Source: Candidatus Spechtbacteria bacterium (GTDB lineage Bacteria > Patescibacteriota > Minisyncoccia > Spechtbacterales > JACPHP01). From it: 64,000 bases of DNA. Every line of letters starts with the position of its first letter. Positions within the stretch are counted from its first letter, which is position 1. The notes below the pieces were generated by a model. It was given only the letters and a program-made list of their open reading frames with translations, ran no database searches and had not been told where the DNA came from. Shown piece after piece: positions 6,929 to 62,073 of the stretch. The translations under genes were made by a program, and so were the position numbers. The stretch is from contig JACPHP010000001.1 in the NCBI GenBank assembly GCA_016188605.1, forward strand, positions 1,327-65,326, in the 5' to 3' direction.

Positions 6929-6938
6929 TGTCTCTGGC

Positions 6939-40347: not shown

Positions 40348-40354
40348 AAATTTA

Positions 40355-40468: not shown

Positions 40469-40470
40469 AT

Positions 40471-42359: not shown

Positions 42360-42368
42360 ATGTTTACT

Positions 42369-43673: not shown

Positions 43674-43746
43674 ATAATTATAATATATGGTATATAAAAA
43701 AAATAATCGGGAGTATCGCAATATATTCCTTAAAGGAGGAATAAGA

Positions 43747-44793: not shown

Positions 44794-44868
44794 TCCCTCT
44801 CCCAAGGAGGATTTACAACCATCCGGGATGGGCGGAGAAAACAAATCATTAAAGTCCCAAAATATCAT

Positions 44869-45031: not shown

Positions 45032-45099
45032 GTATCTAGTCTTACCGGGGCATCTCAATATGAGGTGCCTTTTGTTTTATAATCAGGTGTTATCTGGTT

Positions 45100-45295
45100 T
45101 CAAAATTTTCAATGGTTATGTTTTCAGCCATAGCAAGAAATACAAAAAAATGTATTTCTACGTTTAACAAAAATTACAACAAAATGTAATTTTACGCTAA
45201 GGCTGATCCCCGCCAGAGGCGGGCAGGCGTCTCAGGCGGAGAAAATTTAGTAATTGTAAATTTATTGAAAATTGTTAAATTGAAAATTGATCATT
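45100..45295. repeat. spacer filled with heptamer repeats (ttgaaaattg units) and a long-variant REP-like element
   Basis: ttcaaaattttcaatgg...gtaattgtaaatttattgaaaattgttaaattgaaaattgatcat. The same ttgaaaattg motif follows R8 at 27400..27455. Confidence 0.6.
45196..45246 (+). mobile_element. REP-like element long variant copy R9
   Basis: gctaaggctgatccccgccagaggcgggcaggcgtctcaggcggagaaaattt, the reverse complement of the 21367 copy. Confidence 0.65.
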
Positions 45296-46630: not shown

Positions 46631-46676
46631 CTTTATCGGGTAGTCTATAGAAGCACGGCTTCTATACTCGCGCTTA

Positions 46677-47810
46677 TCATATAATTTTCGCTAATACTTT
46701 CTCCGCGTAATCTTTATCGCGTACCACATCCCCTACAGGCAGACCAGTTTCATTCTCCGCTTCTTGTGTCGCGCGTCGCGTGTCTTCTTCAGACATGCCG
46801 GATGTATTCAAAGCCACCGCTGCAACTTTTGTGTCGCGGTATGTCGGTAAAATACTAGATTCGTAGTGCTTAATCGCTTCTTTCAGCGAAGGAAGAGCCA
46901 CAAGCTTGGAGCCAATGGAGTGTTTTCGCGCGGGCCTGTGGACTAACACCATATGCGTTGGCACCGCGCCGTGAATTAGGGAGATGCAGGTATTCGAGAA
47001 TGCGGGATGAAATAAACTCCCCTGCCCTTCCACAAAAAAAATATCGTAATCATTTTGTTTTTCAATCAGCATTTTCTCCACCGCGCCAGCCATAAAATCC
47101 GCTGGCAGGGCGTCTATGGAAATCCCCCAGCCCTCAATCATAATGCTCGTTTGTCCCGTAGGGATTACGCAGGCACGCATGCCCCGCTTTTGCGCAGCTC
47201 GCGCGAGTTCATAGCTTGTTGTCATCTTTCCAATAGCGGCATCGGTACCTACCGTTAAAACTATAGGTTTTGTAATGTGATAAGATTGCGAGGAACACAC
47301 GGGAATACTTTGCAAATCAACATCAGAGCGCACGTCCCAAATTATTGAGCCACTGGTTTTAGCGGCCTCGCTAAACTGCGCATTATTTTTTAGCGGATAA
47401 TGCATTCCCGAAACTACATGCATGCCTTGTTGCAAAGCCGTTAGAATATCATTTTCCCACTCGCGTGGCAACCCTCCGCCCTCTGGGGCGGCGCCTAGTA
47501 AAAGAACAGATGCTTTGGTAATATCACGCGCTTCAGCGAGCGACGAAAAAATTGGCGTATCGACATTTTTTGAATCATCGAGATATCCGCCAAGCACATC
47601 ATATACTCTTATGTGGGGTATCCGATACCCCACATAAGATGTGGAGTCCACGATGCCCGCTATCGGATATTCCGCGTATCGCAAAATCCCATCCGCGGTT
47701 TTTGCCCGCATGGGGAATTTTTTGCGTGCATTAAGGCCAAAAACCCCCTCGGCGTAGATGAGAGATACGTGCTCTGCTAGGTTAATCGGCGCATTTATTG
47801 GGCTAGCCAT
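46677..47810 (-). CDS. DUF1611-family P-loop protein (same family as MurL, the UDP-MurNAc-L-Ala-L-Glu epimerase described in Xanthomonas)
   Basis: N-terminal LIYAEGVFG...AKTADGILRY...GIVDS and P-loop TVGTDAAIGKMTT match the DUF1611 pattern from memory. Confidence 0.55.
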   Translation of the reverse strand: MASPINAPINLAEHVSLIYAEGVFGLNARKKFPMRAKTADGILRYAEYPIAGIVDSTSYVGYRIPHIRVYDVLGGYLDDSKNVDTPIFSSLAEARDITKASVLLLGAAPEGGGLPREWENDILTALQQGMHVVSGMHYPLKNNAQFSEAAKTSGSIIWDVRSDVDLQSIPVCSSQSYHITKPIVLTVGTDAAIGKMTTSYELARAAQKRGMRACVIPTGQTSIMIEGWGISIDALPADFMAGAVEKMLIEKQNDYDIFFVEGQGSLFHPAFSNTCISLIHGAVPTHMVLVHRPARKHSIGSKLVALPSLKEAIKHYESSILPTYRDTKVAAVALNTSGMSEEDTRRATQEAENETGLPVGDVVRDKDYAEKVLAKII

Positions 47811-49821: not shown

Positions 49822-49848
49822 TTAAGGTTTTAACTCTTTGAAAGATTT

Positions 49849-49906
49849 GTCATCTCGAAGTCCCGTAGCGGCGGGACGAGAGATCTCTCACTATGTTCGA
49901 GATGAC
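49849..49906. mobile_element. MITE family C copy 2 (inverted relative to copy 1)
   Basis: gtcatctcgaa-gtcccgtagcggcgggac-gagagatctctc-actatgt-tcgagatgac. Confidence 0.7.
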
Positions 49907-49927
49907 AGCTGCTACTAACGATCAGTT

Positions 49928-51328
49928 CTATTCTTTTTCTTTTACAGGAATAATCTTGAGATGTAATTCATTAAGTTGCGCTTCGTCAACCGTGCTTGGC
50001 GCTTCCATTACGGAAGTCCTGCCATTTCCGGTTGTTGGAAACGGAATTACTTCGCGAATACTCTGCTCTCCTAATAATACCAGAAGCCAGCGGTCAAAGC
50101 CAGCAATGCCTCCATGAGGAGGAACGCCGAAAGAAAAAGCTTCAAGAAGATGTCCGAAACGATCTTCAATTTCTTCTTTGCTATGCCCTAGCGCTTGAAA
50201 AACCTTTGTAAGAACATTGGGGTCTGTGGTCCTGATACTGCCTCCGAAGACTTCAGCGCCATTTAGCACCAAGTCGTATTGCTTTGCGCGAATTTGGCCG
50301 TACGCGGAAGGATCGTCTAATTTTATTATGTCATCATCTACAATTGCTGTAAACGGATGGTGAGCTGCTCCCCAACTTCCATCGTCTTTTTTTTCAAACA
50401 TTGGAAAATCTACAACCCATGTATAGGCCATTACATTTTTATCTTCTTTATTCTTGCGCACATCAGGGTTATCGCGGCCATAATCTTTCATAGCATCGGC
50501 GTATGACATACGCGGGAATGGCTTTTCCTGTATTGTTTTGCCCAGCACGTTCTCCGTGACATATACCACGAGCTCCTCAAGCAGAGAAATAATATCTTCT
50601 TGCTCTACAAATGACATTTCTATGTCTAACTGATCAAACTCAAAGAGGCGGTCGTTGCGCAAATCTTCATCGCGGAAACAACGCGCGAATTGAAAATACC
50701 GATCCATGCCGCCAACCATCAATAATTGCTTGTATTGCTGTGGTGATTGCGGGAGTGCGTAAAATTTTCCCGGATAATGACGAGATGGTACAAGGAAGTC
50801 GCGCGCGCCTTCCGGTGTGCTTTTGGTAAGGATTGGCGTGTCGATTTCGGTAAATCCTTTTTCCGTCAGCATATTGCGCAAGGTCTGCTTCACTTTGTGG
50901 CGCGCTTGCAATATCTCTCGCACGCGAGCGCGGCGAATATCAAGGTAACGATACTTCCAGCGAAGTTCTTCGCTGATATCGTATCCATCACCATCAATAG
51001 AAAACGGCAGTGTTTTTGCCACGCTTAAAACTTCAATCGTTTGCGCCAGCATTTCAAAATCACCCGTTATCATATTTGGGTTTTTCATGTTTTCAGGGCG
51101 GCGCTGGACTGTGCCTGTAATTTTCAAAACCCATTCTGAACGCGCGTCTTTTGCCTTTTCGTAGAATTCACCCGCAGAAGGCAATATCACGACCTGCAAA
51201 AGCCCGGATACATCGCGCATGTCCAGGAAAATAATCTTGCCATGGTCGCGGCGAACATGCACCCATCCGGCGATGGTTACCGATTCGTTTTCGTGTTGAA
51301 CTATGTCTTTTATAAGAATTCTGTTCAT
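49928..51328 (-). CDS. aspS: aspartyl-tRNA synthetase, short (archaeal/eukaryal-like, no GAD insertion) form
   Basis: N-terminal OB fold, motif 2 FRDEDLRNDRLFEFDQLDIEMSF, motif 3 GGSIR..PPHGGIAGFDRW. 466 aa. Confidence 0.75.
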   Translation of the reverse strand: MNRILIKDIVQHENESVTIAGWVHVRRDHGKIIFLDMRDVSGLLQVVILPSAGEFYEKAKDARSEWVLKITGTVQRRPENMKNPNMITGDFEMLAQTIEVLSVAKTLPFSIDGDGYDISEELRWKYRYLDIRRARVREILQARHKVKQTLRNMLTEKGFTEIDTPILTKSTPEGARDFLVPSRHYPGKFYALPQSPQQYKQLLMVGGMDRYFQFARCFRDEDLRNDRLFEFDQLDIEMSFVEQEDIISLLEELVVYVTENVLGKTIQEKPFPRMSYADAMKDYGRDNPDVRKNKEDKNVMAYTWVVDFPMFEKKDDGSWGAAHHPFTAIVDDDIIKLDDPSAYGQIRAKQYDLVLNGAEVFGGSIRTTDPNVLTKVFQALGHSKEEIEDRFGHLLEAFSFGVPPHGGIAGFDRWLLVLLGEQSIREVIPFPTTGNGRTSVMEAPSTVDEAQLNELHLKIIPVKEKE

Positions 51329-51341
51329 AGTTATAGTTATA

Positions 51342-52910
51342 TTATTCGTTTCTATAAAACGGCAGTGACACTATAAAGGTTGACCCTTTCCCTTCCCCCT
51401 CTGACTCAACCCACGCCGTACCGCCGTGATCTTCTACAATACGCTTGACTATAAATAAGCCAAGTCCGGTGCCATTAACGTCAATTTTTTTACCTCCCTC
51501 CCCACGGGAAAAACGCTGGAACAACTTTTCTTTATCCGCTTCGGTAATGCCAATGCCCGTATCTTTCACGGAGATGCGCATGCGCAATGGGTTATTGTAT
51601 AATTGAGTAACGCTTACCTCCACAGACCCTCGCGGCGTATATTTTATCGCATTGTCGATAAGGTTCAATATCACCTGGCGCAATTTGCTATCATCTGCTT
51701 TGACGCAAAACCGCACGGCATTTTCTGGATGGTGCCAAATAAGCTTTAGGCCTTTTGATTCAGCAGAGATTTTTTGCTCGTCTACAATACTGTCTATCAT
51801 ATCGGGAATGCAGATTTTTTGGAAGACATAATGAAATTCGCCTCGTTCAATGCGAGACACGTCTAGCAAATCTTTCACAAGTCCTATGAGCACCTCGTTG
51901 CTTGAATAAACCTTTTTTAACGCGTCATTTGCGTTGATGTCTATTTTTCCGTAGTCGCCATCAATAACCATAGAAAGATAGCCCTTGATGGCCGTGAGAG
52001 GCGTGCGTAGCTGATGCGAGGCGATGGAGATAAACTCTGATTTGAGGTCGGAAATTTTTTGCAGTTCTCTGATTTCACGAAGCGTGCCGCGAATAAGAGA
52101 GATGCCAAATATAGTTACAAATATAAATAGAATACTATTGACTGAGAATTCTCGCGGTGTCGGCGATGTTAGTACATTTATGAGGAAAATAAGAATAACT
52201 AGAAAAGTAAATGTTTCTGTGGCAATAACGCGAATATTGAATAGCTGATGTCTAAATATGGCATATGCCGTGAGTATTAGAAACGGCAACGTAAAAATAG
52301 GCCCGAATTTTATGAAGAATGTAATGTGTAGCAATGCCGTCGCGACAAATTGAGTTAGTATAAGTAGCGCAAACATTAAGAAATAGCCAGTAGCAACGTA
52401 AACCATCTGCGCCCGCCTAAGTCCAGTAGCTATTTTTAATTTAAGTATCAACTGCCTACCTCCCAATATAAAGAGTAGGAGGATCGTGATGCCAAATAGT
52501 GGAATAAGTGACCCGGGTATTGGCGCTCCATTGGCATCAATGTACTTAAAAACAAATGGCGTTTGAGTGGCTATGATCGTGACGATCGAAAGTATCCATA
52601 TTCCTGCATGGGCGAACTTCGGCATTTTCAATTCCTCGTCCGGGAAGACTTGAACCAAAAAGAAAAACATCAGCTGCAGGAAAACCGCAACCATCAAAAC
52701 TATCCTTGCCCATATCAGCATGTATGGCGATGGCTGCAATGAAAAATAATTTGCAATAGTCCACAGAACAAGGGCTATTGTGGATAAGACAAAGAATCGT
52801 CTGCTGGGGCCCGAATCGCCCTTAAAATAAATAAGCGCGCCAAGAAATATACTTGCCGCGACAGCAATAAAAGCCGAGATAAATGTGACATCACCAAAAA
52901 GTGATGGCAT
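51342..52910 (-). CDS. sensor histidine kinase with about 7 N-terminal TM helices; no cognate response regulator in the window
   Basis: H-box SHQLRTPLTAIKGY. HATPase N/G boxes (DNAIKYTP, DTGIGI, GTGLGLFIVK). Confidence 0.8.
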   Translation of the reverse strand: MPSLFGDVTFISAFIAVAASIFLGALIYFKGDSGPSRRFFVLSTIALVLWTIANYFSLQPSPYMLIWARIVLMVAVFLQLMFFFLVQVFPDEELKMPKFAHAGIWILSIVTIIATQTPFVFKYIDANGAPIPGSLIPLFGITILLLFILGGRQLILKLKIATGLRRAQMVYVATGYFLMFALLILTQFVATALLHITFFIKFGPIFTLPFLILTAYAIFRHQLFNIRVIATETFTFLVILIFLINVLTSPTPREFSVNSILFIFVTIFGISLIRGTLREIRELQKISDLKSEFISIASHQLRTPLTAIKGYLSMVIDGDYGKIDINANDALKKVYSSNEVLIGLVKDLLDVSRIERGEFHYVFQKICIPDMIDSIVDEQKISAESKGLKLIWHHPENAVRFCVKADDSKLRQVILNLIDNAIKYTPRGSVEVSVTQLYNNPLRMRISVKDTGIGITEADKEKLFQRFSRGEGGKKIDVNGTGLGLFIVKRIVEDHGGTAWVESEGEGKGSTFIVSLPFYRNE

Positions 52911-52920
52911 AAGAAAAAAG

Positions 52921-53955
52921 TTACTTTATTGTCTGATTGCTATTATCAAGATAAACGATATACCTGCCTGATTTTAAATCTTGTTTTGTAGTAATTTTTC
53001 GAACTGCATAAGCTACTGCCGATCCCGCGATTGTCGCGGTGGTTCCAAGCTGAGGCACTGCCGCAATCGTTTTGCCGATTTCAGAAAGAGACTCCCGCAT
53101 TCTTTGCGTGAGGTTAGCGGGATCAACTATTCTTGTCGCAACCTTTACCCATTCAGAATACGCCAGTCCAGCTATCTTGTCGGGATCAACTCCTTCAACC
53201 AGACCGTGTAGAATAGGTCTTTCTGGTTCTTCATCAAATCTCTCAACATCAAGTATAACATTATCTCCGTTATCTGTAGCCATAACCACCGGAATGCGAT
53301 GTTCGCGGCACACTATGCGTGAAAGAAGCTTTAATTCCAAGCTATCCATTTCATCAATGAAAACGTCTAATTTTGGCTCAAGAATAAATTTTTCAAGCGT
53401 TTGGCGATTTACACCATCAGTCCATAAATCCAATTCTGAAAAAGGGTCTAGCTCCCAAACCTGTTGTGCCGCAAAGTCAGTTTTATTCATTCCTATGGCA
53501 AATACTGGCGCGCGAAGGCGGTTGAGATTAGTAATCTCAATGACATCATAGTCGGCTATTTTTAAATTTTTCGGACCACCGCTGAAAACCAGCGCGTTTA
53601 TTACATTAGAACCAACGGAAAGACCTATAATTCCTACTCTCGCCGCTCTATATGTTTCCTGTTCTTCCTTGGTAATAATATTTTTGTTGCGCGCAGTGCG
53701 CAACTCAAGATAAATCTCCTCGCTAGGCACGCGCGCCACGATATTTCGCCAAGGATAATATACATACACTGCGGGCAAACCTTCGTTATTTTTGATAAAA
53801 ATATCGCACTTTTCCGCCCTCTCTGTTGGCGGAGCGGATTTTAGCGCGGGGTTGCGGATAACGCAGAGTTCTTTCAGCGCTGTGGGGATTGTGTCAACAA
53901 AAATCGCGCCGGCGGGTAACAATTGTTTATCTTTTTCTATACGAATTGATTGCAT
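52921..53955 (-). CDS. ThiF/MoeB/E1-like adenylyltransferase-fold protein with about 110-aa N-terminal extension
   Basis: Rossmann GIIGLSVGSNVINALVFSGGPKNLKIADYDVIEITNLNR, typical of the E1-like superfamily. Confidence 0.65.
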   Translation of the reverse strand: MQSIRIEKDKQLLPAGAIFVDTIPTALKELCVIRNPALKSAPPTERAEKCDIFIKNNEGLPAVYVYYPWRNIVARVPSEEIYLELRTARNKNIITKEEQETYRAARVGIIGLSVGSNVINALVFSGGPKNLKIADYDVIEITNLNRLRAPVFAIGMNKTDFAAQQVWELDPFSELDLWTDGVNRQTLEKFILEPKLDVFIDEMDSLELKLLSRIVCREHRIPVVMATDNGDNVILDVERFDEEPERPILHGLVEGVDPDKIAGLAYSEWVKVATRIVDPANLTQRMRESLSEIGKTIAAVPQLGTTATIAGSAVAYAVRKITTKQDLKSGRYIVYLDNSNQTIK

Positions 53956-53966
53956 AGATATGCATA

Positions 53967-55532
53967 TTACGTCTTTTTAGTCCACCTTTGTTTAATAGAT
54001 TTTACATTGAAGTATTTTTCATCTCCCTTGGCTGCAAAACGAATTGACGGAATAGCTCTTTCTCCAATAGCATCATAGAGCCGATTGTATTCAAGGTTTC
54101 TTTTGCGAAGCGCCGCGACGATGTAATCGCTTACGATTTTTCGGGCGAGCGCGCTTTCCTTTACGCCTTCGCGCAATTCAACAGTAATTTCCCAGTATTG
54201 GTCCTGGTTGCTTTTACTTTTTTGCTGCATCACAAATTTACCCGTCGCAAATGGCACAACTTCTTCGTTCTCCAATCCCTCCTTGATGTTTTCTGGATAA
54301 ATCTTTAGCCCGTAAAAAGAGATGGTAAAATCGCTTTTTCCAAATACTGCTAAAAATGGAAACGTCCATTTAGGTTGTTTTTGTACCGACTGATCGCTAG
54401 CAAGGCTTGAAATTTTCATCACTTCGTCAAAAGGAATAATTTTTCCGGCATCGTGGACGTTATACCTTACAAGCGGCACTCCACCCCTTGCCGTAAAAAG
54501 AAGCTCCCCTTCCTGTTCTTCGAAGAATTTAAAGATGGGATGATATTGCACAAATGTCGGGGTAAACGTTTCATCTCCCCACAATTCCGATGCTGTGTCT
54601 TTATCCTCTGATGCCGCGCGGCGTATGGCAACCGAAAGAGGTGTTTCGTGTCCCAGAATCCCCGAATCGGCAGAGCCATATATATTAATTGATGTAGATT
54701 CGGCGCTAGTCGCGTTGGTTTTACTTAGTATGTAGTCGCGAAATGCTTCGCTGAAATTTTCTGTAGCAAAAAGAAATTTTATCTTTTGATTTTCCCACGA
54801 TATCCCCCTTTTCTCTCCGGCGTCAATAATATCTTTAACAAACGGCGGGTACCCGGCGAGAACAATCTGGTTATATTTTGGGCCCAGTTCCTTTATAGCA
54901 CGCAGTACGTCATTAAGCTCAACTCCCGGAGCAATAATACTGATAGGCAACCCCATTTGCGATGTATGTAAAATAGAATCAAGTGTAATAATTCCGGCAA
55001 TATAAATACCCATTGAGAAACTTATTACTACAAGCGTGGGCGTGCTGCCGGCATCAAAAAATTCTTTTAATATAAGAGCGTGGATAAGAGACGTTTCTAT
55101 TTCAAGATTGTCACCCCTAGGCCAAAAATATGGCGTACCTGAAGAGCCAGAGCTGACAGAAAAGATAGTATTTTCTTCAACCTTGCCATCCCACGACAGC
55201 TCTTCGGACGAATATGCCTTGATATAGTTTTCTTTATCAGTAAAAGGTACATTCTTAAAATCATCTATAGTTTTAATTTCGGTGTGCTTGATATTGTTCT
55301 TTCTTAGAAAATCTTTATACGCGGGCACGCTTTCTGCCGCTTCGTGAAATAGAGAAAGAGCCATCTCTTGTCCGTGAGTTTCCCAAAAATCGGCGCTTTT
55401 TGAGCAAAGCAAGGAATTTGCTTCGTCAAGATTTATTTTATACAAATTGAGGATTCCGTCATATTTAAATCCACGCCTGTCAAAAAGGCGTAAGAAAAGT
55501 TTATAAAAAGGATTTAACGTGTCGTGTTTCAT
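53967..55532 (-). CDS. adenylate-forming enzyme of the PaaK/CapK/F390-synthetase (ANL-like) family
   Basis: ATP-binding motif FSVSSGSSGTPYFWPRG and overall architecture. Confidence 0.6.
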   Translation of the reverse strand: MKHDTLNPFYKLFLRLFDRRGFKYDGILNLYKINLDEANSLLCSKSADFWETHGQEMALSLFHEAAESVPAYKDFLRKNNIKHTEIKTIDDFKNVPFTDKENYIKAYSSEELSWDGKVEENTIFSVSSGSSGTPYFWPRGDNLEIETSLIHALILKEFFDAGSTPTLVVISFSMGIYIAGIITLDSILHTSQMGLPISIIAPGVELNDVLRAIKELGPKYNQIVLAGYPPFVKDIIDAGEKRGISWENQKIKFLFATENFSEAFRDYILSKTNATSAESTSINIYGSADSGILGHETPLSVAIRRAASEDKDTASELWGDETFTPTFVQYHPIFKFFEEQEGELLFTARGGVPLVRYNVHDAGKIIPFDEVMKISSLASDQSVQKQPKWTFPFLAVFGKSDFTISFYGLKIYPENIKEGLENEEVVPFATGKFVMQQKSKSNQDQYWEITVELREGVKESALARKIVSDYIVAALRKRNLEYNRLYDAIGERAIPSIRFAAKGDEKYFNVKSIKQRWTKKT

Positions 55533-55576
55533 ATTTTTATACGTGACGCAAACTTCAATAATATCTCATGAATATC

Positions 55577-56626
55577 TCATGTTAGCACTTCTTCAACTCC
55601 TCTTCGCGGGCTATGTGGCGCAACTTTTGTAGGATATCCTAGTCCAAAAAACATTTGCGGAGAGAGGGTCTGGTTAGTTTTTTCAAAAATAAAAGTCGAG
55701 AGTTTTTTTCTGGACTCGCCACTTTCAATTGCAGCAACCATAATGGACGCGGCCATGCCTTTGCTTTGTAATGTCAGAAGTACGCTTTCAAGAAGCTCTC
55801 CGGTATGCAGCCACGCCGCCGCATTATCATCTTTGGTGCTTATTATACCAACAGCTCCGAAATTTAGCACGCGCTTAATCGCTTTTTTCTCCTCTACTGG
55901 CGATACATCTATTAAGCGTAACGCCCAAGGTGCCGCAAGTGATTTAAGCATAGACATTTCGTGTCCAGATCCCGGCATGCCATCTCGGCTCATCGTCCAA
56001 TTATTGCGAATCCATGTCGCAAGTTCTTTGCGGAAATCAAGCTGCGACATTTTTTCTTTCATGCCTTCCCCCGCTATCGAAGCCAATAGTTTTTTATCGG
56101 TGAAATTATTGGTAATAGTTAGATTGATGCCGCTTTCGCTAACTAGATTCTGAAGATCATCAATAATTTCCGCTGGCACTTCTTTGTTCTGATACTCTGC
56201 TCTGTATGAAACGCGCTGCGTAATTGCTGAAAATAAGGCATCATCATGGCTAACAAGGCCTTTATCGTCGCATGTTAGCGTTACGGCGTGCTCGGCGTTA
56301 GCGTTTGAAAGCTGTTCGTTATAATGAACAGCGCATTCAAAACCGTAATGTTTTGCCGCAATAATCATATTTTCTGCGGCGCAACCAAGGGCGATATAAG
56401 TCATGCGGCCTGTCGGATCGCCAAATTGCGGGCGGCGTGAAAAATCAGCAATTATTTCAATGCTGTTATTATCTACATGAAATTTCCATGGTTGTGTGTT
56501 GTGGCTGGATGGCGCGAGGATGCCAAAACAAACTAAAAATTTTAGTTTGTCGGTTTTGGTGGGCTGGTCATAGAAACCCCTTGGGTCTATACTCCACGCT
56601 TCGTAGTTTGATGGTTTACGGCACAT
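55577..56626 (-). CDS. nitroreductase-family flavoprotein (two-lobed, about 350 aa; SagB/Acg-like size class)
   Basis: SSHNTQPWKF motif and a second degenerate lobe. Confidence 0.65.
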   Translation of the reverse strand: MCRKPSNYEAWSIDPRGFYDQPTKTDKLKFLVCFGILAPSSHNTQPWKFHVDNNSIEIIADFSRRPQFGDPTGRMTYIALGCAAENMIIAAKHYGFECAVHYNEQLSNANAEHAVTLTCDDKGLVSHDDALFSAITQRVSYRAEYQNKEVPAEIIDDLQNLVSESGINLTITNNFTDKKLLASIAGEGMKEKMSQLDFRKELATWIRNNWTMSRDGMPGSGHEMSMLKSLAAPWALRLIDVSPVEEKKAIKRVLNFGAVGIISTKDDNAAAWLHTGELLESVLLTLQSKGMAASIMVAAIESGESRKKLSTFIFEKTNQTLSPQMFFGLGYPTKVAPHSPRRGVEEVLT

Positions 56627-56641
56627 ATAATGATCAAGTGA

Positions 56642-57718
56642 CTAAAGTTGTAACACTGTTTGATGAATAGCCTCCTGTACTTTTTTCATATCTTGTTCTG
56701 AAGGCACTGCCATGCGCACCGCGTTTGCTAGATACGGTAGATTGGCTGGATGGTGTGATAGGTCATTTATCAATATTCCGTGATCGCGCATAGCTTCTAA
56801 GAAATTGGCTGAATTTTCGGTTTTGAAAAGGAAAAAGTTGGCCTTCGAAGGATAGACGCTAATCCCTTCTTTGCGCAGAAATTTTTCCATCGCCGCCTTC
56901 CTTTCGGCAAACTTTTTCCATTGTTCTTCAAAATAATGGAGGTTTTTAAGCGCAGTTGTTGCCGCGTAAGTGCTGAAATGGCTTAATTCCCAAGGGCCGC
57001 GCAGTTTTATTATTTCCCCAACAATAGATTCGTCAGCCAACATATATCCGATTCTTAGTCCCGCCATGCCAAAAAATTTGGAAAAAGTGCGTAAAACTAT
57101 AAGATTTTTGTGTTTCAAGATGTCTTGTACGTGGCTATGAGGGTAAAATCCAAAATATGCCTCGTCAAGGATGACAGGTATGCCTTGGTCGTCGCATGTA
57201 GCAATAAGCTCATTTAGCTGGCTCTCGTCCATTGCCGCTCCAAGAGGATTGTTAGGGTTGCACAGCAAAAGCGCTTTTGCACCTGGAAGGGCTTGTTTTG
57301 TTTCTTCAAAAGGAAATTCAAAGGATGTTTCGTTGTCGCGGTAAGGAATTTCTACAAGCTGGATTGGAGAAAATTGCGCTCGGTAGTTATAAAAAGCAAA
57401 GTTTGGCGATGGCATGATAACCTTGTCACCCTCGCGAAATAAAAGTTTAAAAAGTAGGTCAATTGCCCTGTCGGACCCGCCGGTAAGAAATATATTTTTA
57501 GTAGAAACGCCCGTGTAATTGGCTAGCAAGTCTAGTAGTTCCTCGTATTCCGGGTAACATCCGACAGTAAAAACGCTGAAATCCTTCAGCTTTGCCAAAA
57601 AATCGTCGTTTATAAGCCCGTAGCTCTCATTCAAATCTAGTCGGATAAATTGCTCTCTTTTAGAGGGCATTTTGTAGCGCTTTTGTGGCAACGAGTATTT
57701 CTCTGTAGAGAAAGTCAT
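56642..57718 (-). CDS. class I/II PLP aminotransferase, histidinol-phosphate aminotransferase (HisC/CobD)-like
   Basis: LNESY...GSDRAIDLL...NPNNPLG...RTFSKFFGMAGLRIGY (PLP-Lys). Confidence 0.75.
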   Translation of the reverse strand: MTFSTEKYSLPQKRYKMPSKREQFIRLDLNESYGLINDDFLAKLKDFSVFTVGCYPEYEELLDLLANYTGVSTKNIFLTGGSDRAIDLLFKLLFREGDKVIMPSPNFAFYNYRAQFSPIQLVEIPYRDNETSFEFPFEETKQALPGAKALLLCNPNNPLGAAMDESQLNELIATCDDQGIPVILDEAYFGFYPHSHVQDILKHKNLIVLRTFSKFFGMAGLRIGYMLADESIVGEIIKLRGPWELSHFSTYAATTALKNLHYFEEQWKKFAERKAAMEKFLRKEGISVYPSKANFFLFKTENSANFLEAMRDHGILINDLSHHPANLPYLANAVRMAVPSEQDMKKVQEAIHQTVLQL

Positions 57719-57777
57719 ATAGCTTATATTATAATATCACAAAATACCTTTTAAGTAAATAGATAGGGTTTGCGGCT

Positions 57778-58908
57778 CTATAACCCTCGTTTTATACGGC
57801 GCAAGCTTTCCAGTGCCCAGTTTGGCCAATAACGCCAGGAAATCGGTAAATCTTGCGCGTGGAGATAATCTGTTTGGTAGCCTCCGAATCCTTTTTTGAA
57901 CAACGTTAAGCCAGCCCATGGGTGCTTAGGATTTTCGCTGGTTGTGATGCCCCAAAAGTTATATAGCTTCTTGTTTCTTCTCTTTGCTTCTTTAATTGCC
58001 GCCCACTGCACTGCGTAGGCAGTCGGGATATTTGAATACCTAAGCGATGACGCGCCGTGGTGGTAGAAAGCGCTGTTTCCGTAAAAAATAATCACCGCGC
58101 TTGCTTGAGGTTCACCCTGAGCATTGCCGAAGGGCTCGCCCTTATACCAAGCGGAGATCACCTCCGCTTGTCCTTCCGTAGTCCTTCCGTAGCATTGTAG
58201 CGTAGGAGGGCGAAGGAGGACACTTTCATTTTTCGAGAACGCATCAACCTCGCATTGAATATATTCTCGTGAAAATGGAATAAAGTCGTGCTTAGCAACT
58301 GTTTCTTTGTGTAATTTATAAAAATGGTCAATATCTTCCTTGCTGGCGCCGATTGTAATCTCTACGCCTTCTCTTTCCGCGCGGCGGATGAGGTTTCGCG
58401 TGGTTTTGCGCATGCCCTTTAGCAATTCTTCCTCGCTAGGCGATAAATCAAGTGTCCAAGTAGTTTCCGCGTGCATGTGAATTGGCGCGGGGCGAAAACC
58501 CAAATCAGCAAAAAGCTGGCGATTTTCTTCAGTAGCTATCATTGGCGGGCTGACGCGAATAAAATACGCTTTTTCTTGTTGTGCAATCTTTTTTAACTCC
58601 GATGTAAGGGTTTTTAAGATTTCAAATTTTGAATTTTCATTTTGAGATTTGAGATTTGAGATTTGAGATTGAAATATCGGCCCGTGTGGTATAAAAAGAA
58701 ACCTTCCGCGTCTCGCCTCTACCAAAATTACAAGTATCACTGATACGAGTTCTCCATTTTCCTCAACACCAAAACGCCACATCTTATCCCCCATTCGCAC
58801 GTTAAACTCGCCCCACTGCCATGAATGCAGGAAAGTATGGTCGGGCTGGGAAGTGACGAAACTATCCCATTTTTCCTTGTCTGTTATTTGGATGATTTGT
58901 GGAGACAT
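57778..58908 (-). CDS. FemAB/FemX-family aminoacyl-tRNA-dependent peptidyltransferase-like protein
   Basis: HSWQWGEF N-terminal motif and tandem GNAT-like halves, about 376 aa. Confidence 0.65.
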   Translation of the reverse strand: MSPQIIQITDKEKWDSFVTSQPDHTFLHSWQWGEFNVRMGDKMWRFGVEENGELVSVILVILVEARRGRFLFIPHGPIFQSQISNLKSQNENSKFEILKTLTSELKKIAQQEKAYFIRVSPPMIATEENRQLFADLGFRPAPIHMHAETTWTLDLSPSEEELLKGMRKTTRNLIRRAEREGVEITIGASKEDIDHFYKLHKETVAKHDFIPFSREYIQCEVDAFSKNESVLLRPPTLQCYGRTTEGQAEVISAWYKGEPFGNAQGEPQASAVIIFYGNSAFYHHGASSLRYSNIPTAYAVQWAAIKEAKRRNKKLYNFWGITTSENPKHPWAGLTLFKKGFGGYQTDYLHAQDLPISWRYWPNWALESLRRIKRGL

Positions 58909-58913
58909 AATGT

Positions 58914-59068
58914 TATCTCAAAACGCAAATCTCAAATGTCAAAACTGAAACTTAAATCTCAAAACTACTACGGAGATACTTTTAATTTTTCCGCCAGAGG
59001 CGGATCAGCCTCAGGCTGAAGATTTAAGATTTTGATTTGAGTTTTACGATTTGAAATTTGAGATAAAA
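58914..59068. repeat. palindromic heptamer array (caaatct / agatttg arms) enclosing REP-like element R10
   Basis: Same organisation as 796..950. Confidence 0.7.
58987..59020 (-). mobile_element. REP-like element copy R10
   Basis: ttttCCGCCagagGCGGatCAGCCtcaGGCTGaa. Confidence 0.7.
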
Positions 59069-59082
59069 ATAGTTTACTACTG

Positions 59083-60318
59083 CTATAAGATATTTTTTAA
59101 AAAATTAATCACATTTCTTGCATCCTGTTTTGATATATTTACGTGCGTCGGCAAGTTAAAAACTTCGCGCGCGGCTTTCTCGGCATTGGGGCATGAGCCT
59201 TCCGCATAATTCATTATGTCGAAATCTGTACCTCGCGGCGCAATGACACTATCATACCAATCCCCTAGCAAAATGCGCGCATTCTTTGCTTTTTGCAAGA
59301 TACTGTCTCTGTTTTGATTGCGCATTGGATAGCGCAAGAATACATATTTGGCTCCGCGAGACATATTAAGCCATGAATTTTTTGCCGGTGTTGGGTCAAG
59401 CGCTTTTTTATACATATCCGCAACCGCGTTCCTATGAGCACTGAACAATTCGATTTTTTCAAGCTGGTGGAGAGCGAGTATAGCCAAAGCGCCAGGTAGT
59501 CGCGCGGGAAAATATTCTGGCTTCCTGCCGTATCTTTCACCTTGCGTTACGGCTTTTGAAAGCAAATGCAAGCGTTGCGCCGCTCTTAGCGCGTACCTGC
59601 CAACAGTCCAGTATGTTGCGATAATAGGAGCCATGAATAAAGGATGCAGTAATTGCTGGCTAGTCCACAAATACGATGGACAAGGAAGCGTTGTCCATTC
59701 CTGTAGCGCGCGCCGCGACACTATTTTTTTATTTACTATTAGCGCTCCTCCATAAACCGAAGAAATAACTTTGTCTCTGCCGAAGCTAAAGAACGTGGCG
59801 TCACCAATGGTGCCAACCCTTTTTCCACCCCACTCCGCGCCAAGCGCGTGAGCGCAGTCTTCTATTACAAACAACTTATGATTTTTTGCTACCCGCAAGA
59901 GCGCGTCCATGTTAGCCGGTATGCCAAATGTATGCTGAACTACCACAGCTTTACAGCGTGGTGTAATTTTGTGTTCTAAATCCATTGGATCCATGTTGTA
60001 GCCATCCTTTTCTATATCTACAAATACTGGCTTTGCGCCCCACCATAATACTGGATTTGGCACTGCGTTGCAGGTAAATGCTTGTACAAGTATTTCGTCC
60101 CCAGGCTGAATACGCAACGCTTTAAGCAGTGTCAAAAAAGCCGAACGACCGCTGTTAAATAGCAAGACTTCCGCAGTGGTGCCGAGGTATTGCGCAAGGG
60201 CTTTTTGTAATTTTTTATTAGCCCCCTCGTTTCTCCAATTCCACGGACGTATCAAAACAGACCAAGCGAGGCGCCTGTCATCATTTTGAGTATTGGGAGA
60301 AAGTGAAGTATAGATCAT
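59083..60318 (-). CDS. DegT/DnrJ/EryC1/StrS-family PLP-dependent sugar aminotransferase
   Basis: FTCNAVPNPVLWWGAKPVFVDI...EDCAHALGAEW...FSFGRDKVISS (PLP-Lys). Confidence 0.85.
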   Translation of the reverse strand: MIYTSLSPNTQNDDRRLAWSVLIRPWNWRNEGANKKLQKALAQYLGTTAEVLLFNSGRSAFLTLLKALRIQPGDEILVQAFTCNAVPNPVLWWGAKPVFVDIEKDGYNMDPMDLEHKITPRCKAVVVQHTFGIPANMDALLRVAKNHKLFVIEDCAHALGAEWGGKRVGTIGDATFFSFGRDKVISSVYGGALIVNKKIVSRRALQEWTTLPCPSYLWTSQQLLHPLFMAPIIATYWTVGRYALRAAQRLHLLSKAVTQGERYGRKPEYFPARLPGALAILALHQLEKIELFSAHRNAVADMYKKALDPTPAKNSWLNMSRGAKYVFLRYPMRNQNRDSILQKAKNARILLGDWYDSVIAPRGTDFDIMNYAEGSCPNAEKAAREVFNLPTHVNISKQDARNVINFLKNIL

Positions 60319-60373
60319 CTATTTTTCTTTAGTGTATTTTAAGAGTTGGTTCTATGAAAGATCTGATGTTTTT

Positions 60374-60439
60374 GAATACAGAATACAGAATTGAGAATAC
60401 AGGTCCTGTATTCCGTATTCTTGATTCTGTATTCTGTTT
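60374..60439. repeat. perfect-ish palindrome of gaataca heptamers
   Basis: ttgaatacagaatacagaattgagaatacaggtcctgtattccgtattcttgattctgtattctgtt. Confidence 0.7.
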
Positions 60440-60441
60440 AG

Positions 60442-62073
60442 TTAGTCATCTATAATCAAATTTCTCACAATCGTTTCCGGTACGCGATTCTCTAACAATA
60501 TAACGTCTCCTTCGTCGCATAATTCTTGGGCTTTGCGCATTGCTATATATGGATCTGGTATGCACCACAAGGCATTTTTACTCATGCCGGCTTTAATAGC
60601 TTCGTCTTTTATGTATTCGTAGAAATCTGGCGCCGTAACAATGCACTGATCGCAGGTCTCCGCGATTTTTGCTCCTATCGCGCGATGCGCGTCTTCCGCA
60701 GCACGACCAAGTTCAATCAAGGGATATATTATGCATATTTTTTTGCGGCCCTCTGATTCTTTTAGAATATCGAGCGCCGCAAACACTCCATCTGTGTTAG
60801 CTGAATAACTATCATCAATTATTGTAGTATGCTTGATACCTCGACGGAAATGAATTGCGTGCGGAGGCGTTTCAAGTGTTTTGCAGGCCTCGGCAATCTC
60901 TTTGTAGCTCATGCCAAGTCCGTGCGCTGCGCAAATAGCGCCGACAACATTCGTACCGTTATGCGCGCCGCTTAATGGCACCTCAATGGCGATTTTCTTT
61001 TTCTTGTCCCGTATTTCCACTGTCATCCTATCTTTGCCTTGGTGAATTTTCTGCGCAAAAATTGCAGCAGATGCGAGGCCTTCAGGTAAATTGGTCGCGT
61101 ACAGACGTTTTGGTTTTTTGCAATTATCGTAGAGAGCGCGCGTGTACTGGTTGTCGCCGTTAAATATCGCGAGCCCTTTTTCTGGCAGTGATTCAATTAG
61201 TTCGTATTTTGCGCGCTGAATATTACGAAACGAACCAAAGAGCGACAAGTGCTGTTGGTTGATGCCGGTTAAAATACCGATTTGCGGCTTCACCATCGCG
61301 CAAATGTCGCGTATTTCTCCTCGCTTGTAAGCTCCCATCTCAACGATGAATATTTCATGCTCTTGCCTAAGATTTTTTATAATATGGCTTGCGATGCCAA
61401 TCTCTGTATTGGTATTTTCCGGCGTTTTTAATACATTAAAATTATTTTCCAAAATATGCGAAAGAAATTCTTTCATGCTGGTCTTGCCGAAGCTTCCCGT
61501 AATGCCAATGACGAGCAAGTCTGGAGTAGATGCTAACTTTGTCTTGGCCCGAGCAACTATTTTTCGCTTCATGTAAAGCGATAATGGCCGAGCAGTACCC
61601 ACAAAAGCTGTTGCAATAGCTGGAACCATTAAATCTGTAAAAAACAGAAGCGATAACGCGCTTGGAAGCGGCGACAACAGCCCAGCGATAACCATTACGA
61701 GCGCCGAGCTAAAAGTTAGACCAAGCAGAGACACGGCCTTTTTGGTAAATGTAGGCATACGAAGGCGATGGTCTTGATATGCTTCATACATGCGGTATGC
61801 CTGAAAACCATATAAGCCAATCCCGGCTAAAAGCATTACATAAGAGAAGAAAGATGCTAGCAATCCAAGCGCGGAAAACAAGAACAGCACTCCCACTGCC
61901 AGGGTTTTATAACTTAACAAAAGTTTTTTCGCGCTTGGTAGCTCGAAGTGAGCGCGCATGCGATCAAGCCGATATTCTTTTAATTGCCAAAGATATATCC
62001 AAAACAGCGCGTCTTTTACCACGCTTGTGATCCAAAGTATTCCGAAAATAAATAATAGGATTATTTCTACCAT
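60442..62073 (-). CDS. murF: Mur ligase (MurF-like, UDP-MurNAc-pentapeptide synthetase) fused to an N-terminal about 190-aa polytopic membrane domain
   Basis: 4-5 TM helices, then LLVIGITGSFGKTS...IVEMGAYKRGEI...GAHNGTNVVGA. A cytoplasmic Mur ligase fused to TM helices is unusual. Confidence 0.7.
   Translation of the reverse strand: MVEIILLFIFGILWITSVVKDALFWIYLWQLKEYRLDRMRAHFELPSAKKLLLSYKTLAVGVLFLFSALGLLASFFSYVMLLAGIGLYGFQAYRMYEAYQDHRLRMPTFTKKAVSLLGLTFSSALVMVIAGLLSPLPSALSLLFFTDLMVPAIATAFVGTARPLSLYMKRKIVARAKTKLASTPDLLVIGITGSFGKTSMKEFLSHILENNFNVLKTPENTNTEIGIASHIIKNLRQEHEIFIVEMGAYKRGEIRDICAMVKPQIGILTGINQQHLSLFGSFRNIQRAKYELIESLPEKGLAIFNGDNQYTRALYDNCKKPKRLYATNLPEGLASAAIFAQKIHQGKDRMTVEIRDKKKKIAIEVPLSGAHNGTNVVGAICAAHGLGMSYKEIAEACKTLETPPHAIHFRRGIKHTTIIDDSYSANTDGVFAALDILKESEGRKKICIIYPLIELGRAAEDAHRAIGAKIAETCDQCIVTAPDFYEYIKDEAIKAGMSKNALWCIPDPYIAMRKAQELCDEGDVILLENRVPETIVRNLIIDD

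Follow-up and report, generated by a model that had tools for sequence, protein, structure and literature searches.

The closest described counterparts of the locus analyzed here are three oxazolone systems: OxzAB of Pseudoalteromonas rubra, TyzACB of Mycobacterium tuberculosis, and TrzAS of M. tuberculosis, M. smegmatis and Rhodococcus. OxzB is a fused ThiF-nitroreductase oxazolone synthetase that depends on the N-acyltransferase OxzA; the ThiF-like TyzB and the flavoprotein (FDO) TyzC are split polypeptides encoded in one cluster with the acyltransferase TyzA, which uses lauroyl-CoA; and TrzS (Rv1355c) is a fused ThiF-FDO tryptazolone synthase paired with the N-acyltransferase TrzA. OxzB, TyzBC and TrzS have an established biochemistry (PMC10404671, PMC12856293, bioRxiv 10.1101/2020.06.11.147165), and in the known systems the N-acyl amino acid comes from an acyl-CoA-dependent N-acyltransferase. 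In the literature on characterized oxazolone systems we found no mention of a linked sensor kinase (none is mentioned for OxzAB or reported at the tyz locus). A two-domain ThiF-nitroreductase enzyme genetically coupled to a sensory regulator, comparable by domain type only, is encoded by ORF1 (SCAB79581) of S. scabies, which is co-transcribed with the gene for CfaR and raises CfaR output about 10-fold (PMC4380410); CfaR, however, is a cytoplasmic PAS-LuxR transcription factor and not a membrane histidine kinase.

The window analyzed here, a 64-kb stretch of DNA from a Candidatus Spechtbacteria genome (Patescibacteria/CPR), contains seven consecutive minus-strand genes, all recovered with the boundaries that the original prediction had given them. 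The computed gaps between them are 59, 15, 44, 11, 10 and 13 nt, so that the tight spacing stands although the exact range predicted, 11-60 nt, does not (10-59 nt). The median gap is 14 nt compared to 97 nt for the 17 other gaps in the 24-gene co-directional block that contains them (Mann-Whitney p = 0.003), that is, the packing is unusually tight for the block. Nevertheless, because the genome is compact and the run is embedded in a 30-kb co-directional block of the kind typical of CPR, co-linearity alone is weak evidence of shared function. Indeed, the seven genes are not one functional system but a composite of three units. The reading that we favor, with a probability of roughly 0.58, is that four of the seven genes form a module whose product is an oxazolone-type small molecule, made along a route not described so far, and that the genes for the FemAB-family transferase and the aspartyl-tRNA synthetase belong to separate units. 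The original prediction is thus supported in part; its view of the E1-like, nitroreductase-like and adenylating enzymes as a small-molecule tailoring module was right in spirit.

The ThiF/E1-like protein (52921..53955, 344 aa) is assigned to the oxazolone-synthetase clade of ATP-dependent cyclases on the basis of its NF005901 match, full-length identity, motifs and fold. It matches NF005901 (the Rv1355c family) with 315 bits (8e-94) over model positions 38-337 of 722, a score that does not reach the cut-off for the full length, as one would expect of half a protein, and it aligns over its full length, including the N-terminal extension, with the N-terminal (cyclase) halves of fused ThiF-FDO oxazolone synthetases at 38-42% identity (41-42% for the actinobacterial fused homologues). 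Residues G108xxG111xSxG115, D135, R146, K158 and D201-E-x-D204 are invariant, and the adenylation motif is the same as in TrzS. The structures nearest to the AF2 model (pLDDT 89.6) are 9egb (AclA), ThiF and MoeB; by profile, the nearest solved relative is TcdA. The protein had been predicted to be E1-like with a 110-aa N-terminal extension, and both the class and the extension were found, but the Pfam ThiF match begins at residue 91, leaving about 90 aa. Assignment to the MccB type or the MoeB/ThiF type was rejected in view of the full-length match to the cyclase half of the oxazolone synthetases. In public databases, members of this family are annotated as 'molybdopterin/thiamine biosynthesis adenylyltransferase' or 'tRNA threonylcarbamoyladenosine dehydratase'.

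The nitroreductase-superfamily flavoprotein (FDO; 55577..56626) exceeds the cut-off of the Acg-family FMN oxidoreductase model NF047509 (225 bits against 199) and hits the Rv1355c/TrzS model in the C-terminal half (5e-25), so that the two proteins of the window correspond to the two halves of that model. Its closest solved structure is Acg (2YMV), the same fold reference as for the FDO portion of TrzS, and the motif APSxxNxQPW is common to the FDO and the fused ThiF-FDO proteins. Profile classification thus gave neither an ordinary MoeB/ThiF enzyme nor a generic NfsA-type nitroreductase, the outcome that would have counted against the original prediction, but a third option: the two proteins are homologues of the two oxazolone-synthetase activities (OxzB; TyzB and TyzC; TrzS). 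The ThiF-like enzyme would adenylate the carboxylate of an N-acyl amino acid with ATP and cyclize it to an oxazolone (azlactone), and the FDO is predicted to be the desaturase of the pathway, catalyzing flavin-dependent alpha,beta-desaturation. The predicted chemistry is that of OxzAB, from an N-acyl aromatic amino acid to an unsaturated oxazolone, and the splitting of cyclase and desaturase into separate polypeptides resembles TyzACB; in contrast to TrzAS, the two genes are separate, with an adenylating enzyme gene between them. The oxazolone reading is weakened by the fact that characterized FDOs use O2, whereas an anaerobic life is presumed for many CPR bacteria.

This intervening gene (53967..55532, 521 aa) encodes an ANL adenylating enzyme of the PaaK clade, identified by weak matches to PaaK and FlxY HMMs and by its modelled fold (AF2, pLDDT 88). 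The protein has no Pfam match and fails every PaaK equivalog cut-off (53 bits against 646). The PaaK-family ligases give the best superposition (Foldseek E 1e-22 to 1e-16), with the aryl-acetate CoA ligases PaaK1/2 and BT_0428 at about 1e-22 followed by NatL2, AjiA1 and ClxA, which form esters or amides independently of CoA in benzoxazole pathways; the identity is only 14-17%, and the ANL enzyme is about 90 residues longer. The P-loop (SSGSSGxP), the A5/A7/A8 motifs (E296-T297, R356-Y357-D361) and the C-terminal catalytic lysine (K514) are kept. An OxzA/TrzA-like acyltransferase gene is present in 57 of 62 loci that lack the ANL gene and in none of 18 loci that possess it. The ANL enzyme and the N-acyltransferase never occur in the same locus, and the N-acyl amino acid is therefore probably a product of the ANL enzyme itself. 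We predict that it activates an aromatic-amino-acid-derived acid and forms the N-acyl amino acid, replacing OxzA, TyzA or TrzA. The carboxylic acid would be converted to an acyl-adenylate and then coupled to an amino acid, either directly, as by the PaaK relatives of the ClxA and NatL2 type, or via CoA; CoA-independent amide- or ester-forming PaaK relatives are documented (PMC12519233, PMC9400959, PMC7204872). The enzyme could also act at another step of the pathway.

The remaining biosynthetic gene (56642..57718, 358 aa) encodes a HisC/CobD-like PLP aminotransferase of class I/II (PF00155, 2.4e-49) that scores below both the HisC (TIGR01141, 228 bits against 276) and the CobD equivalog cut-offs. 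It is separated from the FDO gene by 15 nt, and Kaiserbacteria L015 likewise has a HisC-like gene immediately upstream of the module. In other loci this accessory slot is occupied by a FlxA-like tyrosine ammonia-lyase (L006, L008, L010 and L013) or by a ScyB-like ELFV dehydrogenase of the aromatic amino-acid type (L016, L067 and L086); altogether, an amino-acid-converting enzyme was found in this slot in only 9 of 19 CPR loci. Grouping the HisC-like gene with the module, as originally proposed, is plausible given this variable-slot pattern, and the gene is a probable accessory member that turns an amino acid into a building block, probably one derived from an aromatic amino acid. Because the window contains the ANL gene and such an accessory enzyme but no acyltransferase, the acyl group is probably aromatic-amino-acid-derived, unlike the fatty acid used by TyzA. 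The HisC-like and ELFV enzymes would be expected to yield a 2-oxo acid, and we found no precedent for a PaaK-type enzyme that activates such an acid; alternatively, what these accessory enzymes provide might be the amino-acid half.

No partner accompanies the module more constantly than the gene that had been treated as a bystander. The seven-TM sensor histidine kinase (51342..52910, 522 aa; PF16927 HisKA_7TM, PF00512 HisKA and PF02518 HATPase_c), located 10 nt from the ThiF gene, adjoins the module, invariably on the 3' side, in each of the 19 CPR loci. The kinase had been called an orphan, and no receiver-domain ORF or second kinase was found in the 64-kb window. Outside CPR, 47 of 65 loci have a 7TMR-DISM kinase gene after the ThiF(-FDO) gene, and all 55 kinase-core matches in 1.23 Mb of these loci lie on the strand of the ThiF gene, 2.7-6 kb downstream of it. 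Locus counts throughout are inflated by kinship (many Algoriphagus, Pedobacter and Mucilaginibacter genomes), and the p-values carry no correction for phylogeny. In Bacteroidota, the cassette consists of RR, ThiF-FDO, a 233-aa OxzA/TrzA-like candidate, 7TMR-DISM HK, RR-HK and RR, and looks like an OxzAB pair set in a phosphorelay. Adjacency is no proof of a ligand, but most likely the kinase detects either the product or a membrane-soluble cue related to it, or else couples production to a phosphorelay. The constant pairing hints that the enigmatic oxazolone-type molecules are signals.

Kinases commonly control neighboring biosynthetic genes, which fits the alternative that survives best. It accepts the ThiF-like enzyme and the FDO as a true oxazolone synthetase but considers the ANL enzyme an aryl/acyl-CoA ligase serving an N-acyltransferase encoded elsewhere, and the kinase a transcriptional controller of the operon rather than a product receptor. 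The nearest structures of the ANL enzyme are indeed true CoA ligases (PaaK1/2, BT_0428 and HCL), and FlxA/FlxY is a precedent for a TAL and CoA ligase pair. We regard this alternative as unlikely: ANL and acyltransferase-like genes are fully mutually exclusive within loci, no k0- or TrzA-like gene was found within the 64-kb window or in any CPR locus, and most CPR loci lack a DNA-binding response regulator beside the module, with only single-domain receivers in 6 of 15. Furthermore, CPR bacteria are generally not known to encode the biosynthesis of CoA and fatty acids.

The ThiF, ANL, FDO and kinase genes occur together in all 15 CPR loci of the 80-locus reference set (15 CPR and 65 non-CPR), in at least six orders or strand arrangements, and in four additional close relatives (19 of 19 CPR loci examined). 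The core module (51342-57718) is therefore a biosynthesis and sensing unit conserved across Patescibacteria. In the window and in L009, L013, L015, L086 and L088, it lies amid murC/murF-like, mraY, ftsW, murG, DD-carboxypeptidase and FemAB genes, which would fit a module that belongs to this dcw-like block and modifies peptidoglycan precursors, the ThiF-like enzyme and the FDO cyclizing or desaturating the C-terminus of the stem peptide, chemically an N-acyl amino acid, and the ANL enzyme adding a substituent. This possibility appears remote, however, because the four genes have no cell-wall genes near them in Saccharibacteria, Nomurabacteria, Berkelbacteria, Yanofskybacteria and L090, where their neighbors are dnaK/dnaJ/grpE or unrelated genes, the homologous cassettes of Bacteroidota and Actinomycetota have no peptidoglycan context, and the characterized homologues use free N-acyl amino acids (PMC12856293).

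The two outermost genes were central to the original prediction, in which an aminoacyl-tRNA-dependent or microcin C/RiPP-like pathway was envisaged. In the form considered here, a peptide-clamp E1 resembling MccB, a dehydrogenase of the SagB kind and the adenylating enzyme would tailor a peptide, aminoacyl-nucleotide or cross-bridge, with FemAB using Asp-tRNA from AspRS, or AspRS conferring self-resistance to an aspartyl-adenylate mimic. Apart from the close spacing of all seven genes, this is favored by the adjacency of FemAB to the module in three related lineages. The FemAB-family transferase gene (57778..58908, 376 aa; PF02388, 5.6e-35), however, is preceded upstream by a DegT gene (59083-60318) and a MurF-like gene (60442-62073), an order repeated in L086 and L088/L089; it occurs in none of the 80 reference loci, is missing from the close relative L090, and is found near the module only in close relatives, always after the MurF-like and DegT genes. 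FemAB is therefore part of the adjacent MurF-like, DegT, FemAB cell-wall block and outside the module. Similarly, the bacterial-type aspartyl-tRNA synthetase gene (aspS, 49928..51328, 466 aa; NF001750, 623 bits in two stretches) follows the kinase gene only in those Parcubacteria that also retain the S11 and MraY synteny, and not in L086 or L088. Compared to T. thermophilus AspRS (1efw, 450 bits), the protein lacks residues about 316-417, the GAD insertion, which is likewise missing in other CPR, and motifs 2 and 3 are intact. By its motifs it looks like a catalytically intact housekeeping enzyme, apparently the sole and normal one of the CPR type, with no part in a pathway or immunity.

The resemblance to MccB and other RiPP E1-like enzymes is confined to an E1-like Rossmann core after an N-terminal domain of about 90 residues: the Foldseek alignment with MccB takes in this domain (328-339 of 344 residues), but the superposition rmsd is about 11 A, MccB is absent from the family profile search at E <= 1e-3, and the same extension, once read as a peptide clamp, is common to small-molecule cyclases of the TrzS/OxzB type. 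No precursor-peptide-sized ORF was found in the gaps or on the coding strand upstream of FemAB, in agreement with what had been noted before. The neighborhood analysis largely refutes this pathway, which we consider very improbable. Ordinary sulfur-carrier or cofactor chemistry by a MoeB/ThiF/TcdA-type E1 and a generic nitroreductase, linked by genome compaction alone, is still harder to credit despite the public annotations and the profile proximity of TcdA, as the E1-like protein reaches 33-58 bits with the ThiF, MoeB and TcdA equivalogs, whose cut-offs are 150-380, the neighbors scanned include no ThiS- or MoaD-like gene, and compaction alone cannot explain a four-gene set that survives heavy reshuffling across CPR classes.

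Beginning 13 nt past the kinase gene, aspS is probably co-transcribed with the module here, only because the genome is compact. Directly 3' of its stop codon, a stable branched hairpin (49848..49907, minus strand; MFE -31.8 kcal/mol, z = -3.1 against 200 shuffles) may mark where the closely spaced transcription unit ends; because no T-tract follows it, we only infer a terminator role. At the opposite end of the module, a promoter-like site (consensus match only) is located within the 59-nt gap between the FemAB and HisC-like genes.

The seven minus-strand genes singled out by the original prediction were recovered at exactly the coordinates it gave, and its family assignments hold throughout: FemAB (57778-58908), a HisC/CobD-like aminotransferase (56642-57718), a nitroreductase-like flavoprotein (FDO; 55577-56626), an ANL-type adenylating enzyme that escapes Pfam (53967-55532), an E1-like protein whose Pfam ThiF match begins at residue 91 (52921-53955), a histidine kinase of the HisKA_7TM type (51342-52910) and a bacterial-type AspRS (49928-51328). 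The run lies within a block of 24 co-directional genes (33370-64000). The six intergenic gaps along the run (59, 15, 44, 11, 10 and 13 nt; median 14 nt) are significantly shorter than the other 17 gaps of the block (median 97 nt; p = 0.003), so the tight run is real, and an identical gene order is found on metagenome contigs of the SRR121133xx-121134xx series. Scans with promoter and terminator consensus sequences were uninformative, save for one promoter-like site ahead of the HisC-like gene. Directly 3' of the aspS stop codon lies a stable, branched hairpin (49848-49907, minus strand; a 12-bp outer stem around two small hairpins, -31.8 kcal/mol, z = -3.1) that has no T-tract and matched no Rfam family, the Rfam scan of the window returning two tRNAs and nothing more.

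The genes that belong together were delineated by comparing 80 loci, fetched from GTDB species representatives with a ThiF-family profile, with all 24 proteins of the minus-strand block and building gene maps; the sample leaves out the proteobacterial OxzB clade, and the locus counts are not independent. At least 536 loci of the ThiF-FDO clade exist among the GTDB species representatives. The 15 reference loci from the Candidate Phyla Radiation (CPR) all combine ThiF and ANL with FDO and a histidine kinase; they represent Saccharibacteria, Nomura-, Nealson-, Wildermuth-, Kaiser-, Berkel- and Yanofskybacteria, Paceibacterota and unclassified Patescibacteria. The genes of the CPR module are arranged in at least six orders, with one gene inverted in some loci, and the kinase is 3'-terminal in all of them. 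The boundaries of the module are confirmed by three closer relatives with 61-65% identical ThiF proteins, namely locus L086 (MurF-like ligase, DegT, FemAB, QueC, CYTH, FDO, ELFV dehydrogenase, ANL, ThiF, kinase, then an inversion), L088/L089 (MurF-like ligase, DegT, FemAB, FDO, ANL, ThiF, kinase, then a recombinase) and L090/L091 (DnaK, GH15, one unassigned gene, FDO, ANL, ThiF, kinase, NUDIX, AspRS, S11). The four-gene module has withstood repeated reshuffling of its order across nine or more candidate phyla or classes and so appears to have an important function. A gene for a XerC/D-like tyrosine recombinase (L086, 13931-14881; L088, 7986-8930; L090, 16722-17675) is located at or near the break of synteny 3' of the kinase in the three relatives and may mark a rearrangement hotspot, which would explain why AspRS adjoins the module in some genomes only.

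Both ThiF and FDO match the model of the Rv1355c family (NF005901), ThiF at positions 38-337 (8e-94, 315 bits) and FDO in the C-terminal half, at positions 370-649 (5e-25). The oxazolone synthetases are defined by TrzS (Rv1355c), OxzB from Pseudoalteromonas rubra and the split pair TyzB/TyzC from Mycobacterium tuberculosis; their ThiF-like domain activates an N-acyl aromatic amino acid by adenylation and cyclises it. ThiF residues 18-338, including the N-terminal extension, are 38-42% identical to five fused ThiF-FDO proteins (from Rhodococcus, Mycobacterium, Algoriphagus, Sorangium and a deltaproteobacterium); the N-terminal domain, whether or not it has a clamp-like topology, is a feature common to small-molecule cyclases. 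Invariant across 20 homologues are the Gly-rich loop G108-G115, D135, R146, K158 and D201-E-x-D204, the last of which (D201-E-M-D204 in the window) aligns with the DECD motif of the fused proteins. The D217A mutation of TrzS abolishes cyclisation, and the conserved Asp of ThiF is presumably the counterpart of this residue of the M. smegmatis enzyme. The FDO gene is located one gene from ThiF, is present in the module in 19/19 CPR loci (the 15 reference loci and four closer relatives) and encodes a protein that exceeds the cut-off for Acg-family FMN oxidoreductases (NF047509, 225 bits against 199). Its closest solved structure is Acg (2YMV), which is also the reference chosen by the TrzS authors for the TrzS FDO domain.

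By sequence profile, the solved structures nearest to ThiF are those of TcdA, which is the other ThiF-like enzyme to form an oxazolone, and of 9egb; MccB was not retrieved by the family profile at E <= 1e-3. The AF2 model of ThiF (pLDDT 89.6) superimposes best on 9egb, ThiF and MoeB; the Foldseek alignments with MccB (3h9j, 3h9g) extend over 328-339 columns, more than those of the best matches, at an rmsd of about 11 A and a TM score of about 0.5. [quoted passage not shown]

The original prediction described a tailoring module, which is supported by these results, and tied it to FemAB, AspRS, aminoacyl-tRNA and RiPP or microcin C chemistry, ties that the results do not support. Given the pairing of an E1-like enzyme with AspRS, a pathway like that of microcin C, in which the product would be an aspartyl-adenylate mimic and AspRS would confer immunity, was considered seriously; it was rejected on the variable neighborhood, the missing precursor and the clade of the E1-like enzyme. 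No small coding-strand ORF that could encode a precursor peptide was found upstream of FemAB, and the gaps within the run measure just 10-59 nt. AspRS falls inside the flanks of just 6 of the 80 loci and follows the kinase only where the synteny with S11 and MraY persists, being missing from this position in L086 and L088. It has intact motifs 2 and 3, scores 450 bits against T. thermophilus AspRS1 and lacks the whole GAD insertion (~100 residues, about 316-417 of 1efw). Other CPR loci encode AspRS enzymes that are just as short (462-497 aa; at L006:264, L009:12604, L013:15095, L015:14628 and L090:12121). A bacterial AspRS devoid of GAD seems typical of these lineages, and we take the enzyme of the window to be the housekeeping synthetase.

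FemAB is absent from all 80 reference loci and from L090, which argues against a link to the E1, ANL and FDO genes, and in close relatives it occurs only alongside genes for a MurF-like ligase and DegT. Based on this distribution, FemAB travels with these two genes: the order MurF-like ligase, DegT/PseC-like aminotransferase, FemAB (57778-62073 in the window, minus strand) recurs across three related CPR lineages (L086, 392-5127; L088, 3-2758; L089, 3549-7363). The MurF-like ligase (543 aa) matched no Mur N-terminal domain and has ~180 unassigned N-terminal residues. The three genes may form a separate unit involved in a modified cell-wall precursor or cross-bridge. The combination of E1, AspRS and FemAB invites misreading as a microcin C or aminoacyl-tRNA system, an error of the sort that compact genomes encourage.

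Modification of peptidoglycan by the module itself was likewise rejected because the cell-wall context seen in the window is missing in most CPR and in all non-CPR loci. An ordinary MoeB or ThiF with a cognate MoaD or ThiS, the outcome that the original prediction had set against itself, was not encountered, with scores of just 33-58 bits to the ThiF, MoeB and TcdA equivalogs (cut-offs 152-377) and no ThiS/MoaD-type gene among the neighbors scanned. Homology of ThiF and FDO to the oxazolone synthetases, rather than to MccB, MoeB or generic enzymes, appears very likely.

The ANL protein represents a family with 2,684 matches, mainly from CPR. Its AF2 model (pLDDT 88) adopts the fold of the PaaK clade; the best Foldseek matches are PaaK1/2 (E = 4.5e-23 for PaaK1) and BT_0428 (E about 1e-22), followed by NatL2, AjiA1 and ClxA, with target-normalised TM scores of 0.6-0.7 to PaaK and 14-17% identity to the matched structures. 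The invariant motifs include the P-loop SSGSSGxP, E296-T297, R356-Y357-D361 and the C-terminal K514, and the protein does not reach the PaaK equivalogs (53 bits against 646 for TIGR02155 and 53 against 700 for NF041878). ClxA is reported to be an amide ligase and NatL2 makes an ester through an adenylate (PMC12519233, PMC9400959, PMC7204872), so CoA-independent coupling has a precedent in the PaaK clade.

The known synthetases are served by N-acyltransferases (OxzA, TyzA, TrzA), and neither a profile of the Bacteroidota 233-aa family described below nor a Rhodococcus TrzA-like query detected a gene of this type in the window or in any CPR locus. An OxzA/TrzA-like gene is present in none of the 18 loci with ANL and in 57 of the 62 loci that lack it, counts that ignore phylogeny. 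Such exclusivity is the pattern that would be expected of non-orthologous displacement, and given that ANL and the acyltransferase exclude each other, we infer that ANL forms the N-acyl amino acid. The prediction amounts to a new ANL family that forms amides, has more than 2,600 members and goes unrecognised by Pfam; no link between oxazolone synthetases and either PaaK-type ligases or Patescibacteria was found in the literature.

In 9 of the 19 CPR loci, a single enzyme acting on the alpha-amino group of an amino acid is encoded next to or inside the module: a FlxA-like tyrosine ammonia-lyase (TAL; 618 bits) in L006, L008, L010 and L013, a ScyB-like (tryptophan-dehydrogenase-like) ELFV dehydrogenase in L016, L067 and L086, and a HisC-like aminotransferase in the window and L015. 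A weakly methyltransferase-like gene is added in three loci. The ANL protein also weakly matches FlxY, the ligase that acts alongside FlxA in making flexirubin. Taken together, the FlxY match, the PaaK fold and the enzymes of this slot suggest that the building blocks come from aromatic amino acids; given this evidence and the slot pattern, the HisC-like gene probably belongs to the module.

Under the most plausible scenario, the HisC-like aminotransferase (TAL or the dehydrogenase elsewhere) would convert an aromatic amino acid to a carboxylic-acid building block, and the PaaK-clade ANL would adenylate an acid to yield an N-acyl amino acid. The ThiF-like enzyme would then adenylate the carboxylate of this intermediate and close the oxazolone ring, and FDO would introduce the alpha,beta double bond, both reactions being those demonstrated for the homologues. 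The product, which would be hydrophobic and prone to hydrolysis, or a cue related to it, would be sensed by the seven-TM kinase. We assign the ANL-dependent oxazolone pathway as a whole a probability of roughly 0.55-0.6. If ANL has taken the place of the acyltransferase and is fed by a TAL, a dehydrogenase or an aminotransferase, oxazolones of new chemotypes are to be expected, aryl-acylated rather than fatty-acylated. The enzymes are of the same kind as those of the known oxazolone synthetase systems, but the CPR module differs in its split architecture, in the presence of ANL in place of an acyltransferase, in the variable amino-acid-converting feeder and in the obligate linkage to a membrane sensor kinase. 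CPR bacteria have minimal genomes and scant known secondary metabolism, and to our knowledge no such chemistry has been described in this lineage. Outside CPR, two Streptomyces loci (L026 and L029) and a Saprospiraceae MAG (L027) encode ANL, ThiF and FDO, with neither the acyltransferase nor the kinase; an ANL-dependent route should lend itself to study in Streptomyces, a tractable host.

The kinase (PF00512, 1.3e-14; PF02518, 7e-31; HisKA_7TM, 1.6e-8) is not a bystander. It adjoins the module in 19/19 CPR loci, and among the 65 non-CPR loci 47 encode a kinase core just 3' of ThiF(-FDO). Of the 80 reference loci, which come from several phyla, 62 have a sensor kinase gene beside those of the synthetase; the actinobacterial TrzAS-type loci lack it. 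All 55 kinase matches in 1.23 Mb of non-CPR sequence are located 2.7-6 kb 3' of the ThiF gene on the same strand, with none elsewhere. Both the CPR kinases (HisKA_7TM) and those of Bacteroidota (7TMR-DISM) have a seven-TM sensor region. Across the 64-kb window, no response regulator, receiver-domain ORF or second kinase was detected; single-domain receivers are encoded near the module in 6 of the 15 CPR reference loci.

In Bacteroidota, the genes form a rigid cassette, present in ~48 loci among L018-L084 (e.g., L023, 9216-16057), that consists of a response regulator on the opposite strand, ThiF-FDO or ThiF alone, a 233-aa protein, a 7TMR-DISM kinase (~710 aa), a hybrid of response regulator and kinase (~360 aa) and a small response regulator. 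Judging from this gene order, the oxazolone-synthetase-like gene appears to be embedded in a multi-component phosphorelay. The 233-aa protein has no match in Pfam, NCBIfam or PDB; its profile-profile comparison with TrzA-like proteins (hhalign; 47% probability, E = 2e-4, 194 columns) is suggestive of a candidate OxzA/TrzA-like acyltransferase. In ~22 Bacteroidota loci (L018, L020, L044, L046, L054, L058, L077, L080 and others), ThiF is unfused and FDO is undetectable within 10 kb on either side, with the 233-aa gene and the kinase retained. The desaturase thus seems to be dispensable, and the constant triad seems to consist of ThiF, an acyl-forming enzyme and a seven-TM kinase. The locus L042 is labelled Limnohabitans, and its cassette and flanking gene clusters (k10-k13) match those of the Algoriphagus genomes L023 and L044; this contig was probably binned wrongly and derives from Bacteroidota, which casts doubt on the occurrence in proteobacteria.

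The physiological role of bacterial oxazolones is regarded by their discoverers as a major unresolved question for which signaling has only been speculated, the TrzS study noting only a resemblance to acyl-homoserine lactones (PMC12856293). In S. scabies, a ThiF-nitroreductase protein is co-transcribed with the PAS-LuxR regulator CfaR and raises CfaR-dependent production ~10-fold (PMC4380410). Histidine kinases are mentioned in none of the oxazolone-synthetase studies consulted, and no paper linking the two was found. That the window kinase is the receptor of the predicted product can be proposed only tentatively. Equally speculative is the broader notion that oxazolones or their N-acyl amino-acid precursors are dedicated signals perceived by the co-encoded seven-TM kinases (HisKA_7TM in CPR, 7TMR-DISM in Bacteroidota). 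If true, these genes would represent an unrecognised family of autoinducers and receptors spanning at least Patescibacteria and Bacteroidota, the CPR version of which would rest on an acyl-CoA-independent ANL route in genome-reduced, largely episymbiotic bacteria, and the signal could mediate communication among symbionts or between symbiont and host. The kinase linkage makes this hypothesis directly testable in cultivable Bacteroidota such as Algoriphagus, Pedobacter and Dyadobacter.

Elsewhere in the window, a 551-aa ORF devoid of Pfam matches (6360-8015) encodes a membrane protein, and its 5' extension is spurious and antisense. The block that contains the run resembles a dcw cell-wall region mixed with housekeeping genes: at lower coordinates than the run are encoded an M23 peptidase, GluRS, MurG, FtsW, an amidohydrolase, MraY, an ATP-grasp enzyme, a PALP enzyme, a MurC/Mpl-like ligase, a DgcN-like protein and an S11 carboxypeptidase, and at higher coordinates DegT, the MurF-like ligase, a hydrolase and TGT. 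Several unusual members are interspersed among ftsW, mraY and murC on the minus strand (38782-47810), namely the amidohydrolase (38782-40347), a 256-aa protein assigned to no family (41589-42359), the ATP-grasp enzyme, which weakly resembles pseudomurein Ddl (42444-43757), the threonine-synthase-like PALP enzyme (43891-44934), the MurC/Mpl-like ligase, which scores under the cut-off (45275-46630), and the DUF1611/DgcN-like protein (46677-47810). This complement suggests a non-canonical stem-peptide chemistry.
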